The notes under the pieces were generated by a model. The model saw only the letters and a list, made by a program, of their open reading frames with translations, searched no databases and was not told the DNA's origin. A stretch of 64,000 bases of DNA from Escherichia coli 042. GTDB taxonomy: Bacteria > Pseudomonadota > Gammaproteobacteria > Enterobacterales > Enterobacteriaceae. Each line of letters starts with the position of its first letter. Within the stretch, counting starts at the first letter, position 1. Both the position numbers and the translations under genes were made by a program. Where the stretch lies: the NCBI RefSeq assembly GCF_000027125.1, contig NC_017626.1; one strand, given 5' to 3'. This document shows, piece by piece, positions 24,120 through 32,103 of the stretch.

Positions 24120-25364
24120 ATGGCAAGAAAGGCGACCCCACTCACCACCACACAGATCAAAGCAGCTAAACCAGCGGAAAAAGAATACACCTTACAGGAT
24201 GGCGGCGGGCTTTTTCTCGTCATTAAGCCATCTGGTTCGAAACTATGGCGATTCAACTACTATCGACCATCGAACAAAAAACGAACAATCATTAGTTTGG
24301 GATCGCTCGATGAAGTCTCCCTGGCTGATGCCAGAAAACGCCGTAGCGAGTACAGGACGTTAATTGCGTCAGGGATTGACCCACAGCATCACGAGCGGCA
24401 AAAACGCGAAGCAGAGGCCAGAAGACAGGGCAACACGTTCGAAAATGTGGCCGCATCGTGGTACGAAATGAAAAAAAACCAGAATCTCGCCCACAATACG
24501 ATCAAGGACATCTGGCGCTCGCTAGAGAAATATGTATTCCCGTATATCGGAAACACACCGATAGATACTCTCACCGCTCGCCGCTTTGTTGAGATACTCA
24601 CGCCCATCAAGACACGTGGCAACCTGGAAACACTGAAACGCGTTTTACAGCGCATCAATGAAGTGATGGATTTTGCTGCCAACAGTGGACTGATTGACAT
24701 CAACACCGCTGCGAACGTCCGCAAGGCATTCCCTTCCCCCACCAAAAAACACATGCCAACCATCCGACCAGAACAACTACCGCAGCTAATGCACGATTTA
24801 TCGATCGCCAGCATAGAACGGCAAACCAGATTGCTGATTGAGTGGCAGTTGTTAACCGCAACCCGTCCAGCCGAAGCCTCCGCCGCACGGTGGGAAGAAA
24901 TCAACCTTGATGCGGCAACATGGACGATACCAGCCGGACGCATGAAGATGCGCCGTGATCATGTGATCCCTCTTTGCGCTCAGGCGATGGCAGTGCTTGA
25001 AGCCATGAAGCCGATTAGCGCACGAAGGGAGCATGTTTTCCCAAGTCTTAAAAATCCAGTGCAACCAATGAGCAGCCAGACAGCAAACGCAGCATTACGG
25101 CGAATGGGTTACACTGGTGTACTGGTATCTCACGGGCTACGCGCCATATTCAGCACAGCGGCGAACGAAGAAGGATTTGAGCCGGACGTAATCGAGGCCG
25201 CACTCGCACACGTGGACACGAACGAAGTTAGACGGGCATACAACCGAAGCAACTACCTGGAAAAACGTAAAGTGTTAATGTGCTGGTGGGGTGATTTTGT
25301 GGAAGCAGCCTCAACCGGAACAACCATCGCCAGCGGGCACAGGGGATTACGCGGAATAAAATAA
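24120..25364 (+). CDS. int: P4-family tyrosine integrase
   Basis: 414 aa; N-terminal arm-binding-type region (KEYTLQDGGGLFLVIKPSGSKLWRFNYY...), C-terminal catalytic region with HGLRAIFST and a tyrosine near the end (RAYNRSNY); adjacent to a tRNA gene in the same orientation. Confidence 0.85.
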   Translation: MARKATPLTTTQIKAAKPAEKEYTLQDGGGLFLVIKPSGSKLWRFNYYRPSNKKRTIISLGSLDEVSLADARKRRSEYRTLIASGIDPQHHERQKREAEARRQGNTFENVAASWYEMKKNQNLAHNTIKDIWRSLEKYVFPYIGNTPIDTLTARRFVEILTPIKTRGNLETLKRVLQRINEVMDFAANSGLIDINTAANVRKAFPSPTKKHMPTIRPEQLPQLMHDLSIASIERQTRLLIEWQLLTATRPAEASAARWEEINLDAATWTIPAGRMKMRRDHVIPLCAQAMAVLEAMKPISARREHVFPSLKNPVQPMSSQTANAALRRMGYTGVLVSHGLRAIFSTAANEEGFEPDVIEAALAHVDTNEVRRAYNRSNYLEKRKVLMCWWGDFVEAASTGTTIASGHRGLRGIK

Positions 25365-25377
25365 AATATTTAAAAAA

Positions 25378-25417
25378 TTATTGGTTCCTAATTGGTACCA
25401 ATTTGGAGCCAATTTGT
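25378..25417. promoter_or_regulatory. operator-like palindrome cluster in the int-alpA intergenic region
   Basis: ttattggttcctaattggtaccaatttggagccaatttg contains the perfect 14-bp palindrome aattggtaccaatt (25390-25403) flanked by CCAATT/AATTGG half-sites, in an AT-rich region upstream of alpA. Confidence 0.4.
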
Positions 25418-25616
25418 GTCTCTTTACTGTCTCATTTTGAGAAATATTTAAAATTCTTTTTATGTTAGAAAATTAAAAAATAACCAATCACATAACTCTT
25501 ATTAAATAATTCTTGACTTGCTTTTTTATAGATTTGTATTCTTTTTATATGTTTTTACATGTTTACCGTCATTTTCATTCAAAAAGCGGTATTTTACTGT
25601 CTATAGGAGAAATAAG

Positions 25617-25808
25617 ATGAGGGCTATTCTTTTACGACCAGAGGTCAAGGCCTTGCTACGCATTAAATCTGATTCAACCCTAACGGAGATGGTTAACAAA
25701 GGCGGGTTCCCCAAAGGATTCCGTATCGGGCTGCGTCGCATTGGCTGGTATGAAGATGAGGTACTCGCCTGGTTGAAAGAACGTGAGAGAGAAACTCGTG
25801 AAGCATAA
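25617..25808 (+). CDS. alpA: AlpA-family phage transcriptional regulator / excisionase-like HTH protein
   Basis: 63 aa from the ATG at 25617 with an AGGAGA ribosome-binding site; MRAILLRPEVKALLRIKSDSTLTEMVNKGGFPKGFRIGLRRIGWYEDEVLAWLKERE has the AlpA-like pattern (...IG.R.IGW.E.EV..WL). Confidence 0.7.
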   Translation: MRAILLRPEVKALLRIKSDSTLTEMVNKGGFPKGFRIGLRRIGWYEDEVLAWLKERERETREA

Positions 25809-26266
25809 GTGTGATTAACGCTGGCCTGATTACTATCAAGCAACAAAACAATTAAGAGAGAACATTATAAATACTGGCAAAAATGCCCAAACAGGGGCAG
25901 GTTTTCGTTCAACCATAAAAAATTATGGCTGATGTTATTATTCAGTTCAAACCGTACGAACGAATTAATTGAACTAATAGCACTTCCGTTTTAAACGGAA
26001 ACGTACAATCGCATAGCTTAAACGACAAAAGAAATATGTTGCTTACGAATAAAACAAAGGCGACCGCAGAGGGTCGCCAGAAGGCATATATTAAACTTGA
26101 ATGCATCGCCAACAATGCCATATTTCCGGCTGGTGAGCAATGTGATTTGTGTGGTGGGCACACCTTCAACACATCCGACCACATGAGCAAGAAAACGGGA
26201 TATACTCACCAAATCCCTTATAAAACGGGGATCGGGATTACCACCCCGCTGGAGTTAACGGCGATA

Positions 26267-26290
26267 CAGACGCGCCACGCGTCTTTTTTT
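26267..26290 (+). terminator. candidate intrinsic terminator inside the alpA-icd gap
   Basis: cagacgcgccacgcgtc followed by T7 (GC stem gacgcg/cgcgtc, short loop), preceded by further stem-loops at 26058-26079 and 26226-26248. Confidence 0.5.
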
Positions 26291-26454
26291 GTATCGACGC
26301 ACACGCACGCCTTATCAATGGTGGGCTGTATGGGGCTGACTTCGGTCAGGCTGGTTTCCGTTAACACCAGTTGTGGTAACCCTGTACAGTCCACCGCCAG
26401 CGAGCTTACCACCTCCTGCGGTGGGTATATCCCAACGTTAACGGAGGCTGCCAA

Positions 26455-26694
26455 ATGGCTACTATCCCTGCCCTCGCACATACTCAGAACGCCTTTATCT
26501 GGCGCTTTATCATCGTTAATCCGAGTGATTCCCGCGTCGTTCACGTCGTGGCGTCAACCGAACAGGAAGCGCGTAACCGTTGTCCGTCCGGTTGTGTTGC
26601 CGTATTCGCTGCCCGTATTCGTCAGGGGGTAAGTCATGCTCAAGCGATTCCAGATAACCGCACGCGCTGTAAATCATCAAGGCCACGTTATTGA
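26455..26694 (+). CDS. Icd-like (host cell division inhibitor-like) small phage protein
   Basis: 79-aa ORF with a GGAGG ribosome-binding site 8 nt upstream; MATIPALAHTQNAFIWRFIIVNPSDSRVVHVVASTEQEARNRCPSGCVAVFAARI resembles the Icd-like small-protein family as I remember it. The 3' end overlaps the next ORF by 58 nt in another frame, so the true C-terminus is uncertain. Confidence 0.5.
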   Translation: MATIPALAHTQNAFIWRFIIVNPSDSRVVHVVASTEQEARNRCPSGCVAVFAARIRQGVSHAQAIPDNRTRCKSSRPRY

Positions 26695-26860: not shown

Positions 26861-27148
26861 ATGAAAGCAAAAAATTCTGGCTTTACTGCCAGCGGTAAAA
26901 CTCGTCCTAAATTCATGCACGGCGATATTTACCGCGATAAATACGGCAGCACGGTAATGATTAAGGGCGTGAGTGAACGACGCATTACCTACCGCCGTGA
27001 AGGATACAAATATGACTGCGTGATGCCTGTTTATCAGTTCCAGCGTGATTTTACGCTGGTGGATCATCGTGAAACCGTAAATCAGAACCGTGCAGCAAGA
27101 TACATCCGCAAAATCTGCGAAATGATGGTTACTGGGGGCAAGAAATGA
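26861..27148 (+). CDS. hypothetical protein, translationally coupled to the primase gene
   Basis: 95-aa ORF whose TGA stop overlaps the ATG of the downstream 712-aa ORF (ATGA); basic protein; no recognisable domain. Confidence 0.4.
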   Translation: MKAKNSGFTASGKTRPKFMHGDIYRDKYGSTVMIKGVSERRITYRREGYKYDCVMPVYQFQRDFTLVDHRETVNQNRAARYIRKICEMMVTGGKK

Positions 27149-29283
27149 AACGCGCACCGAATTTAAAGCACCAGCCGAAAGACAAAATGACGGAGGTGAT
27201 TATCTTTGCGGGTAGTGATGCCTGGGCACATGCGAAAGAGTGGAGCGAATGGGCCGGAAAGCATATTGCGGCAGATGATACACATCCAGTTATTCTTGGA
27301 CCGGAACAACTGGCGAGTCTGGCAGACACGCAAATCATCGACAAAGGGCGCTATTACGTGCGCGTTTATCGTGCTGGTGAAATATCAGAGCAGCACCTTA
27401 CACAGATAGCGACACTGCTTGCAGTGGCGGGTGTGAAGGAGGCGCGTTGCTACCGCAGCTTTGTTGATCAGCAGCCGGAGGACTGGACACCGCGCATGGC
27501 TGGACTGAAGGATGATGCGGAACGCGGTAACAGTCTGGTGATCAACCTTCCGGCGAAGACAAATTTCACCGGAAATTATGATGACGAATTAAAGCCTCGT
27601 GTTGAAAGTCGCGTCGATGGTGTTTTCTGGGTAACGCCCAAAGTGGACAAGCAGTCAGGCGAAATTATCCGGCCTGAGACGTGGTTATGTTCTCCGCTTG
27701 AACTACTGGGAACAGGAACAATCGGCAAAGAGCATTACCGCGTGATGCGCTGGAAAAAACCAGCAAACCATGAGGTCATTACAATGGCGGTCCCGTGCGG
27801 AGGCATTGGTGACCGTGACGGCTGGCGGTTGCTGAAAGACCACGGCCTTAACGTGACGACCAACGGCAAATACAGGGCTATCCTGGCTGACTGGATGCAG
27901 TTAAGCGGAAACCATGAGGAATGGCAGTTAAGCACAACAACGGGGTGGCATTTTGGTGCGTACATCATGCCGGATGGTTCGATCATCGGTGAATCAGAGA
28001 AACCCATCCTGTTTACCGGAAAAACTGCCGCTGTTAATGGCTATTCCGTGGCGGGAACAGCGGAGGGCTGGCGCGATACCGTGGCACGGCTGGCTGGTGG
28101 TAATCCGTCCATGATGCTGGGTGTGGCGGTATCGCTATCTGCACCATTAATCGGGCTGGTGGGTGCTGACGGCTTCGGGGTTCATCTTTTTGAGCAATCA
28201 TCAGCAGGTAAAACCACCACACAGAACATTGCATCAAGTTTATGGGGAGAGCCGGACGCGCAACGGCTGACCTGGTACGGAACGGCGTTAGGTATCGCCA
28301 ACGAGGCCGAAGCACATAATGACGGGCTGTTACCCCTGGATGAAATAGGCCAGGCCGGAAACGCACGGGAAGTGTCCACGTCGGCTTATACGCTGTTTAA
28401 CGGTTCGGGGAAATTACAGGGGGCGAAGGACGGCGGCAACAGGGAGATAAAACACTGGCGAACAGTGGCAATCAGTACCGGAGAAATGGACGTTGAAACA
28501 TTCCTCAAAAGTGAGGGGATAAAAGTCAAGGCTGGGCAGCTTGTCCGGTTGCTTAACGTGCCGATGGAGAAGTCCACGCAGTTTCACGAATACAGCACAG
28601 GAAAGGCGCACGCAGACGCGTTAAAGGATGCCTGGACAGCAAATCACGGGGCGGCAGGTCGTGAGTGGATTAAATGGCTAGCAGCCCACCAACAGGAGGC
28701 TAAGGACACGGTAAGGGCATGCCGTGAACGGTGGCGCAACCTGATACCGGAGAGCTACGGCGAACAGGTTCACCGCGTAGGGGAACGATTCGCCATACTG
28801 GAGGCCGCGCTTGTGCTGTCAGGCAATGTTACGGGCTGGGATGTTCAGGCGTGCCGTGATGCCATTCAGCATAACTTTAATGCCTGGGTGAAGGAGTTCG
28901 GCACGGGTAACAAGGAACACAGGCAGATTATTGAACAGGCAGAGGCATTTCTTACTGCCTACGGCATGAGCAGGTTTGCGCCTGTCAATTATGACCCTGC
29001 AAGCCTGCCGATTTCAGAACTGTACGGCTACAGGGAAAGCGAGGGGCGTTACGGTGAGCCTGTTTTGTTTTACGTCCTGCCGGAGCCATTTAAATCGCAT
29101 GTGGCGAAGGGATTTAACAAGGATGCCGTAGCAAGAGCCCTTCACGAAGCCGGAATGCTGAAAAAGCCAGCCAGCGGGGAAGGATGGCAAATCAGAACAC
29201 CACGTCTTAAGCACATGAAGGGGGCACGACTAAGGGTGTACGGCCTTTTACTTGCACAGGATCATGATGATGAAGGTGGTTAA
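27145..29283 (+). CDS. primase/helicase-like replication initiation protein (P4 alpha-like; P-loop NTPase core)
   Basis: 712-aa ORF; central Walker A-like FEQSSAGKTTTQN followed by acidic DE-type motifs (LPLDEIG); the size and the iterons immediately downstream fit a satellite replication protein. An alternative start at 27187 (MTEVIIFAG) is possible. Confidence 0.65.
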   Translation: MKRAPNLKHQPKDKMTEVIIFAGSDAWAHAKEWSEWAGKHIAADDTHPVILGPEQLASLADTQIIDKGRYYVRVYRAGEISEQHLTQIATLLAVAGVKEARCYRSFVDQQPEDWTPRMAGLKDDAERGNSLVINLPAKTNFTGNYDDELKPRVESRVDGVFWVTPKVDKQSGEIIRPETWLCSPLELLGTGTIGKEHYRVMRWKKPANHEVITMAVPCGGIGDRDGWRLLKDHGLNVTTNGKYRAILADWMQLSGNHEEWQLSTTTGWHFGAYIMPDGSIIGESEKPILFTGKTAAVNGYSVAGTAEGWRDTVARLAGGNPSMMLGVAVSLSAPLIGLVGADGFGVHLFEQSSAGKTTTQNIASSLWGEPDAQRLTWYGTALGIANEAEAHNDGLLPLDEIGQAGNAREVSTSAYTLFNGSGKLQGAKDGGNREIKHWRTVAISTGEMDVETFLKSEGIKVKAGQLVRLLNVPMEKSTQFHEYSTGKAHADALKDAWTANHGAAGREWIKWLAAHQQEAKDTVRACRERWRNLIPESYGEQVHRVGERFAILEAALVLSGNVTGWDVQACRDAIQHNFNAWVKEFGTGNKEHRQIIEQAEAFLTAYGMSRFAPVNYDPASLPISELYGYRESEGRYGEPVLFYVLPEPFKSHVAKGFNKDAVARALHEAGMLKKPASGEGWQIRTPRLKHMKGARLRVYGLLLAQDHDDEGG

Positions 29284-29308: not shown

Positions 29309-29443
29309 CTTGTCCCACCTGTCCCAACCTGTGAGAAACACACATAACATACTGAATTATATTGGGTAATATCAGAAAAAGTGGGACAAGAGCGGGACAA
29401 GTTAAGGTGATTTTGGGACAAGTTAGGAGCATTTTGGGACAAG
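29309..29443. repeat. iteron cluster 1 (GGGACAAG repeats), putative origin of replication
   Basis: Inverted copies CTTGTCCC at 29309-29316 and ctgtccca at 29319-29326, an AT-rich spacer, then four direct GGGACAAG copies at 29383-29390, 29394-29401, 29415-29422 and 29436-29443; immediately downstream of the primase gene. Confidence 0.6.
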
Positions 29444-29519
29444 TCAGCAGGCGTTATTTTTTGCCTGGCTGGTGGACATTAAAAATCCAACCAACATTTA
29501 AAACCGGAGAGCAGACAAT

Positions 29520-31064: not shown

Positions 31065-31597
31065 ACACAAACGCATCGAGGGTGCTGGCGTGTTGCCAGC
31101 CCCACCCCCTCCGAAATGATCCCCCAAAAAGTGCAAAATGATCCCCCATTAACGAACAGAAAACAAACAAAGAGCAACAAATAATCATTATTTACAATTC
31201 TTGACAAAAACACCCCCTATTTATAACCCTACCAAATTTAAAATTACATCTACAAAACAATAAGTTACAAAATCAGCAACGGATCATTTCGGAAAAAACG
31301 GTTAGTCCCTTTTTCGAAAAGGGATCATTTTGTTGCTTAAACTCATATGCGGATTACATATCAATACGCTAGTGATAGCCGTTCTGGAATGCCACAGAAA
31401 CGCGCTGTAATCGATTCTGGCGCAATTAGCTGTGCTAGGTAATGATTTACCTATCTGGGGATGTTGCGCACGTCTGGATTGCGTTACCACCGAAGATTGT
31501 GCGCATATGGTGGCTGTTACGGTGGCCTCCCGACAACGCAAAATTGCGGCGGCACAGTCGGTTTACCGCGCTAACACGGCTTGATTCACTCGCTCGA

Positions 31598-31717
31598 CTT
31601 GTCCCACCTCCCCCCCCAACTTGTCCCAAAACAGCCTAGACTTGTCCCACCTTACCTAATTTATTTCTAACAAAATCAATTTGTTAGGTGCTGGTGGGAC
31701 AGGTGGGACGGGTGGGA
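31598..31717. repeat. iteron cluster 2 (CTTGTCCC x3 and GGTGGGAC x3 flanking an AT-rich spacer), putative second cis-replication site
   Basis: CTTGTCCC at 31598-31605, 31618-31625 and 31640-31647; inverted GGTGGGAC(A/G)G at 31692-31699, 31701-31708 and 31710-31717; followed by (TA)n at 31729-31740. Confidence 0.6.
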
Positions 31718-31998
31718 CGGGTGGTTTTGTATATATATATACGAAAAATTGCATTCAGGAGGGGGGCGAAATTCCTGCAATCCATTACTTATGGAACTGT
31801 CCGCCCCGTCAAATTTTTACGCCCGCGCAATTAAAAAAATGCGTCACGCAGGTGGGCATGATGCCGATATGCTTGTCGGGTTCAGCTTTTTAAGGCGGCT
31901 GTAGATGTCAGGTTATCCGTGCTCATCCACCAGCCAGCTTCATAGCGGATAGCCGGAAAATGGTAACGGTTAAAGCTGTACATTTTTGCAGCAAATCA

Positions 31999-32023
31999 TT
32001 TTAGTTATACGTTTAGATATACG
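31999..32023. repeat. right boundary direct repeat (putative attR)
   Basis: ttttagttatacgtttagatatacg, 23 of 25 identical to 24034-24058. Confidence 0.5.
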
Positions 32024-32103
32024 ATTTCAAAACTCAATTAATCTACATCTTTAAAATCATGCAGTTACAGAATCAATTAAACTACTCTCGTGGCCAAAAA
32101 TCC

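Follow-up and report, generated by a model that had tools for sequence, protein, structure and literature searches.

Phased 11-bp repeats between int and alpA in a satellite island of Escherichia coli 042: a candidate upstream region for AlpA

Among the closest described systems to the locus analysed here are the PICI EcCICFT073 and the satellite P4. In EcCICFT073 and EcCIMP1, the alpA promoter is activated by AlpA itself, and alpA transcription also rises in response to helper phages (PMC6092414, PMC11773190). For EcCICFT073, activation by AlpA was demonstrated with a PalpA reporter fusion built from the alpA promoter region (PMC6092414). In P4, P2 Cox, a small winged-helix recombination directionality factor (RDF), docks at the cox boxes and activates both the P4 late promoter and the satellite (PMC3936717). 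Three such boxes, each of 10 bp and arranged in tandem, occupy the interval from 146 to 175 bp ahead of the start codon of vis, the gene for the AlpA homologue, and are annotated as "ori type 2 repeats". BldC, Apl, Cox, lambda Xis and TorI all occupy tandem sites about one helical turn apart (PMC5859096, PMC7498355, PMC3936717, PMC2951348), and proteins with the AlpA fold bind direct repeats head-to-tail, with low specificity, strong cooperativity and tolerance of a variable number of sites (PMC5859096, PMC7498355, PMC11963761, PMC2951348). The site of a single BldC protomer is AATTxxxxC, with the wing of the protein placed in the minor groove of AATT (PMC5859096), and proteins of the BldC/RdfS/lambda Xis/Apl/TorI type often regulate their own promoter or that of the integrase (PMC11963761, PMC7498355, PMC2951348). 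The searched literature yielded no definition of an AlpA binding site, of the array described below or of a helper-phage signal for alpA, and no publication was found on PDB 8C3T or giving the sites of P4 Vis. The AlpA of Pseudomonas aeruginosa and its GGGACG element were set aside as irrelevant, since the protein in question, an antiterminator of the Q type and of greater size, has the name alone in common.

The window, meaning the whole stretch of 64,000 nucleotides of Escherichia coli 042 (contig NC_017626.1) that was analysed, contains an island of about 8 kb at tRNA-Pro(GGG), between yejM and yejO, with all of its genes on the plus strand (Table 1). Co-oriented int, alpA and primase genes at a tRNA site, together with an RNA immunity zone, reproduce the PICI/P4-like layout, and judged from this gene content the host element of the array is a small phage-satellite island of the EcCICFT073 or P4 kind. 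The order int, alpA, icd-like gene, DUF4222 gene, primase, ssb and perC is shared with EcCICFT073, which adds capsid genes and whose Int and AlpA are 25% and 30% identical to those of the window island. The left operon of P4 runs in parallel, with its late promoter, vis, CI RNA and primase, and both elements are satellites with C4/CI-type RNA immunity and three tandem units of about one turn upstream of the alpA homologue. The isrK-like and C4 RNAs downstream of alpA point to an RNA immunity module of the P4/P1 type; in relatives, the region in which they fall carries the annotation of an "ash family" pseudogene. The best match in a set of 5,426 complete E. coli genomes is 97.8% identical, and the AlpA protein is identical to that of E. 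albertii NBRC 107761.

Two further features lie between alpA and the RNA genes. A terminator-like hairpin at 25884-25899 (TGCCCAAACAGGGGCA followed by GGTTTTCG), about 75 bp past alpA, implies that the downstream genes need a separate promoter or read-through. A palindrome, TTCCGTTTTAAACGGAA, is found at 25984-26000. A similar motif, ACCGTTTTAAAACGGT, occurs in other islands at the same tRNA-Pro (family 2) within a 20-bp direct repeat, AAAACGGTGGGTACYGTTTT, directly upstream of alpA (L026 2001-2036), and the two motifs may represent a regulatory site common to both island families.

Table 1. Coordinates of the island features, numbered from the first nucleotide of the window
Feature	Position	Strand	Description
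tRNA-Pro(GGG)	23837-23913		site of the island
TTTAGTTATAYG 12-mers, left	24034-24057, 24078-24089		two direct, then one inverted; just upstream of int
int	24120-25364	+	tyrosine integrase, Phage_integrase with arm-binding domain; stop codon at 25364, with the array 16 bp beyond it
Type A unit 1, ATTGGTTCCTA	25380-25390		
Type A unit 2, ATTGGTACCAA	25391-25401		contains the self-complementary decamer TTGGTACCAA
Type A unit 3, TTTGGAGCCAA	25402-25412		
Type B units, TTTGTGTCTCT and TTACTGTCTCA	25413-25434	+	11 bp each, TTnCTGTCTCA; carry on the 11-bp phase
Short palindrome, TCTCAtttTGAGA	25430-25442		end of the array; kept only in group-1 islands
Candidate alpA promoter	25513-25542	+	TTGACT (25513-25518), 18 bp, TATTCT (25537-25542)
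alpA	25617-25808	+	63 aa, PF05930; modelled as a winged helix-turn-helix
isrK-like RNA	26213-26289	+	52.9 bits, above the Rfam gathering score
C4 antisense RNA	26314-26401	+	77.7 bits, above the Rfam gathering score
icd-like gene	after C4 RNA	+	
DUF4222 gene	after icd-like gene	+	
DUF927 primase/helicase	27145-29283	+	
ssb, then ProQ/FinO-family gene, then perC	3' of primase gene	+	
Iteron-like clusters, GGGACAAGT / TGTCCCACC / GGTGGGACG	29309-29332, 29394-29444; 31587-31659, 31693-31724	opposite orientations	after the DUF927 gene; near the right end
TTTAGTTATAYG 12-mers, right	32000-32023		two direct

The first-pass annotation had drawn attention to a perfect 14-bp palindrome with flanking half-sites about 10 bp apart, located between int and the alpA promoter. 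The palindrome, AATTGGTACCAATT, is present exactly as described at 25390-25403, occurs once in the window, and is indeed flanked by the stop codon of int on one side and by the best candidate for the alpA promoter on the other. By itself it is unremarkable and constitutes weak evidence against chance, as perfect even palindromes of 14 bp or more number ten in the window, where Markov simulations predict about five, and the chance of finding one 14-bp palindrome in a 252-bp sequence of the same AT content is 7%. The unit of interest is rather the phased 11-bp array of which the 14-mer is a part, AATTGGTACCAATT being made up of unit 2 and the first bases of unit 3 and embedded in ATTGGTTCCTAATTGGTACCAATTTGGAGCCAAT (25380-25413). 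Three tandem 11-bp units (type A, consensus WTWGGnnCCAA) occupy 25380-25412 and are continued by two type B units. TTGG starts at 25381, 25392 and 25403, giving a spacing of 11 bp, and AATT starts at 25376, 25390, 25400 and 25411. The repetition perceived earlier is real, although it takes the form of a tandem repeat with a variable number of copies and not of a single dyad with flanking half-sites.

The periodicity of this array exceeds by far what chance would give. Tandem Repeats Finder reports a period of 11 with 3.3 copies, and identity at a lag of 11 reaches 0.78 over 25380-25413 and 0.68 over 25380-25434, neither of which was attained in 2000 simulations (P<0.0005). Because each TTGGnnCCAA decamer is self-complementary, units 1-3 together form a 34-bp near-palindrome (25380-25413) with 15 of 17 pairs matched, the only one in the window, where 0.03 are expected (local P ~7e-4). 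Matches to TTGGNNCCAA with at most one mismatch are scarcer in the window than expected (12 against 33), and the adjacent array units account for three of them; no further cluster of TTGGNNCCAA or TTGGnnCCAA occurs elsewhere in the island, including the att ends and the region before the downstream operon. The array shares with those of the RDF/BldC type the presence of at least three tandem units one helical turn apart, here three of type A and two of type B. The surrounding int-alpA intergenic region has an A+T content of 76%, and a 10-11-bp periodicity runs through all of it (0.41-0.42 vs 0.33, P=0.004).

Comparison with related islands separates what is maintained in this region from what is not. 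The comparison set comprised 24 loci of E. coli, E. albertii or metagenomic origin, which reduce to 19 distinct intergenic sequences; a pattern scan of metagenomes at the promoter returned five loci, of which L040, L043 and L044 were taken into the analysis. The intergenic region is 69-95% identical among relatives, and for the full 2.1-kb query, made up largely of the coding regions of int and alpA, identity is 95-98% in the full-length matches listed. All 19 distinct versions keep the array. The exact palindrome persists only in a window-like subgroup and is replaced by AATTGGTGTCAGTT in L004 and by AATTGACACCAACC in L006; conservation in related islands, which had been proposed as a check on the palindrome, is therefore a property of the array and not of the 14-mer. 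Across 18 distinct type A units the consensus is W-T-W-G-G-n-n-C-C-A-A, with G4, G5, C8, C9, A10 and A11 conserved in most of them.

Array length differs by whole 11-bp units, with three to six copies of type A and zero to six of type B, and copy number differs even between near-identical islands. Type A copies number three in the window and L002, four where ATTGGTTCCTA is duplicated, and four, five or six in group-2 islands; type B copies number two in the window, three in L005, six in L004, and none or one in group 2. Unit 1, ATTGGTTCCTA, is nearly invariant over the 19 distinct arrays and is doubled in L001, L003, L043 and L045-47. Unit 2 appears in relatives as ATTGGTATCAG, ATTGGTGTCAG or ATTGACACCAA, and unit 3, TTTGGAGCCAA, is present in one to four tandem copies, the E. 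albertii locus L012 having three identical copies and a variant. Dyad symmetry is maintained across these versions: L047 has a perfect 34-bp palindrome, and where unit 1 is changed to ATTAG, a partner unit is changed to CTAAT, with one exception (L048). The middle ~100 bp of the intergenic region is exchanged between the two island groups, with the array and the -35 and -10 elements retained. In a BLAST search of 5,426 complete E. coli genomes, the array was present only in the 66 that bear the island, a restriction that favours an island-specific partner, and at BLAST sensitivity no copy outside the island was found in E. coli prophages or the phage collection. A genome-wide search for AlpA relatives produced 14 loci, comprising one close relative, L013 at 58% identity and the other twelve at 33-50%. 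The close relative from E. albertii has an AlpA that is 100% identical, yet it carries a group-2 array; within family 1, the AlpA alleles are too similar to inform on covariation with the unit sequence.

The position of the array relative to its two flanking genes bears on its likely function. In 12 aligned islands, no change is seen in the -35 element of the candidate alpA promoter or over most of the spacer, and the -10 element is nearly constant (TATTCT or TATGCT). The array extends from 16 to 70 bp past the int stop codon, which places it 79-133 bp upstream of this conserved -35 element, with the inferred start site some 115-170 bp downstream of the array; from the -35 element, the end of the array lies ~79 bp away when measured from the type B units and ~100 bp away when measured from the type A units. 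At such a distance the array resembles an upstream activating or nucleation region and not an operator that overlaps the promoter. The suggestion that the site is an operator for AlpA autoregulation accordingly survives in part: the sequence is non-random, lies in the control region between int and alpA and is retained in relatives, and it does not overlap the promoter.

An array in the same place is also found in EcCICFT073, where six tandem 10-bp ACAACnnnnn units begin 28 bp past the int stop codon (L222 29188-29247, equivalent to NC_004431 1379187-1379246) and form the most periodic stretch of the int-alpA region (P<0.005). The two arrays differ in that the EcCICFT073 units are 10 bp long and not self-complementary, whereas those of the window are 11 bp long and self-complementary. 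A second 10-bp array in EcCICFT073, GACACAAYCC, is located just before alpA (L222 29456-29483). The P4 unit likewise differs from that of the window: its sequence is TTAAAGNCA and not WTWGGnnCCAA, and it is 10 bp long, where the window units are self-complementary and 11 bp long. The window array also directly follows int, whereas int of P4 is located elsewhere. In family-2 islands, int is directly followed by four AACCA units spaced 9-10 bp apart (P 0.03-0.065), and the family-3 island L035 has no significant array. These family-2 repeats overlap a perfect TATAAT upstream of a small ORF between int and alpA. In L026-L029 and L038 this conserved ORF encodes 61-80 aa and is followed by a strong terminator, and its product ends in GGRPKKWKR, which is AT-hook-like. 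With the arrays of BldC, RdfS, lambda Xis, Apl and TorI the window array has in common the fold class of the candidate ligand, repeats once per turn and a variable number of sites, with AATT in phase as in the BldC motif. Those arrays are, however, usually found at att sites or overlapping a promoter, whereas the window array lies upstream of the -35 element and is not present at the att ends.

The gene adjacent to the array encodes a small winged-helix protein, according to both PF05930 and the structural model. The AlphaFold2 model of AlpA (pLDDT 84) is a winged helix, and its best matches in the PDB are the BldC-DNA complex, the RdfS excisionase, the GIsul2 excisionase (TM 0.80) and Pukovnik Xis, so that AlpA models as a winged helix of the BldC/RdfS/Xis type. 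The sequence AATTGGTAC fits the BldC-type site AATTxxxxC on both strands of the array. From the array, its position and this fold we infer that the repeats are bound by a protein, that AlpA is the likeliest ligand, and that the effect on the promoter is activation and not repression. On this basis we tentatively favour, as a reading with somewhat less than an even chance of being correct, that the array is a cooperative AlpA-binding platform which lies upstream of PalpA and acts on this promoter as a nucleating or activating region. A helper phage would first raise alpA transcription; a small protein, most likely the island's own 63-aa AlpA, would then dock cooperatively on the array, one protomer per helical turn, along repeats that present an AATT tract once per turn; and the bound protein would bend or wrap the DNA upstream of the alpA promoter. 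AlpA binding would thereby result in positive autoregulation of alpA and commit the island to excision and replication.

Several observations sit uneasily with this AlpA platform. The ~115-170 bp to the start site is far for a simple activator, head-to-tail monomers do not need self-complementary units, and TTGGnnCCAA is missing from the att ends and from the region before the downstream operon, which is unexpected if AlpA also serves as an excisionase or activates other promoters by way of this unit. Upstream of a Salmonella alpA of 79% identity stands (TTGCAC)x5 and not the array unit, L035 is without a significant array, and tandem 11-bp repeats are common in phage DNA generally. At the Salmonella-type locus (L030 2255-2290), the (TTGCAC)x5 is accompanied upstream of alpA by many TGCA motifs, and no integrase gene adjoins it.

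The occurrence of a conserved, phased array of variable copy number at the same position in the window island and in the experimentally tractable EcCICFT073 offers a concrete DNA target and a candidate cis element of PICI induction. If it were only a 3' hairpin of int or curved DNA, the finding would be an ordinary one.

That the array is bound by a protein other than AlpA is unlikely, though not negligibly so. Such a ligand could be an unrecognised repressor of island or host origin, present as a dimer on each dyad-symmetric 11-bp unit in the manner of ParR, which binds the 11-bp iterons of R1 parC. Self-complementary units do suit a symmetric dimer better than a filament of monomers, but Pfam finds no ribbon-helix-helix protein or other small DNA binder among the nine island proteins searched. 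The earlier suggestion of a repressor operator also gains no footing from the characterised relatives, in which AlpA has the role of activator and is not accompanied by any known repressor. The ligand could alternatively be a product of the helper phage, such as an excisionase, a Cox-like factor or the inducer of Gram-negative PICIs. Consistent with this notion, helper phages do raise alpA transcription (PMC6092414), and P2 Cox activates the P4 late promoter through boxes upstream of vis (PMC3936717) that we could confirm in the P4 sequence. However, a scan for the P2 cox box (TTAAA(G/C)NC(A/C)) gave zero matches with at most one mismatch in the intergenic region of the window, where the same scan of P4 as a control gave two exact and two one-mismatch matches, and the lack of the array in E. 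coli prophages and the phage collection, at BLAST sensitivity, speaks against a phage-encoded partner as well. Group-2 islands L008, L011 and L012 lend this alternative some weight, as they have 22-bp repeats, CCATTATTTAAAGTYAGAAG, in one to three copies ~130-200 bp past the int stop codon, and these hold the exact P2 cox-box cores TTAAAGTCA and TTAAACTCA (2 exact vs 0.13 expected). The same three islands also have the dyad GTTAGAAA-N12-TTTCTAAC. A more specific version, in which the array is a cis sensor for the helper phage and a helper-encoded small protein polymerises on the phased units to activate PalpA, is quite improbable; were it true, the unit sequence (TTGGnnCCAA, ACAAC in EcCICFT073, AACCA in family 2) would set which helpers are sensed, and copy number would tune sensitivity.

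It is similarly doubtful that the repeats have no specific ligand at all and represent slippage-prone, AT-rich DNA with intrinsic curvature, whose role would extend no further than silencing of the alpA promoter by nucleoid proteins, for instance H-NS. The A+T content and the pervasive 10-11-bp periodicity of the intergenic region are what such DNA would display, copy number varies freely between near-identical islands, and viral contigs often contain tandem pairs of arbitrary 11-bp sequences. Nevertheless, the conserved positions of the units are G/C and not only A/T tracts, paired changes restore the dyad symmetry, and islands with no more than 25-30% identity in Int and AlpA also have arrays at this position.

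The dyad could also act as RNA, in the form of a 3' stem-loop of int that terminates or stabilises the transcript and blocks read-through into alpA. We regard this as distinctly unlikely. The hairpin that 25380-25413 can form, whether as RNA or DNA, has a folding energy of -15.4 kcal/mol (z = -3.3 for the 86-nt region). It starts 16 nt past the int stop codon and is followed by the moderately U-rich UUGUGUCUCUUU, a long hairpin is retained in every variant, and no other terminator-like site exists on the plus strand between int and alpA. Its score as an intrinsic terminator is nonetheless low, with an AU-rich stem base, a T-tail score of 2.72 and a d'Aubenton-Carafa discriminant of about -24 (calculated by hand from the hairpin values), which is below zero, and in group-2 islands the tail is UUUAAACC, which is not U-rich. 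Moreover, in all variants the minus strand folds as well as the plus strand, indicating that the symmetry resides at the level of DNA, and a hairpin leaves the type B units and the expansion to six units unexplained.

Finally, it is very improbable that the repeats serve as arm-type sites of the integrase or as iterons of a replication origin. The array does abut int, the integrase has an arm-binding domain and the analogous P4 repeats are annotated as part of ori, but both island ends are flanked by TTTAGTTATAYG 12-mers that are better candidates for arm sites, other repeat sets (GGGACAAGT / GGTGGGACG) follow the primase gene and lie near the right end, and neither set resembles TTGGnnCCAA. 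The TTTAGTTATAYG repeats are probable arm-type sites of the integrase, and the array unit was not found as an arm-type motif at the att ends, which carry TTTAGTTATAYG in its place. The GGGACAAGT / TGTCCCACC / GGTGGGACG repeats, whose clusters span 29309-29444 and 31587-31728 overall, are probable replication-origin iterons. A (TA)n palindrome, GTATATATATATAC, adjoins the right-hand cluster at 31729-31742 and may be an AT-rich unwinding element. The attR core probably lies near 32085-32101, an approximate placement made by eye from the likeness of CTCTCGTGGCCAAAAAT to the tRNA 3' end CTCTCGTGCCGACCAAAT; exact repeats of at least 12 bp marking attR were not found. In attL, TTAnTCATCGTT boxes at 23926-23940 and 23989-24003 flank the tRNA terminator hairpin, and a third is located within the icd-like region at 26506-26520.

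Arrays of the same general form are not confined to this island. A scan of IMG/VR for paired units, TTGGNNCCAANTTGGNNCCAA, returned 29 loci, where the control patterns gave 20 loci (GGTTNNAACC pairs) and at least 120 (TTGGNNAACC pairs); as this is no specific enrichment over the controls, the scan was dropped as evidence. Many of the 29 loci are nevertheless true arrays of three to five copies, some of them beside integrases. In the unrelated viral contigs L077, L061, L068 and L060, a tyrosine integrase gene is immediately followed by a tandem TTGGnnCCAA array or has one nearby, and the array of L077 (3215-3245) starts 4 bp past the integrase stop codon.
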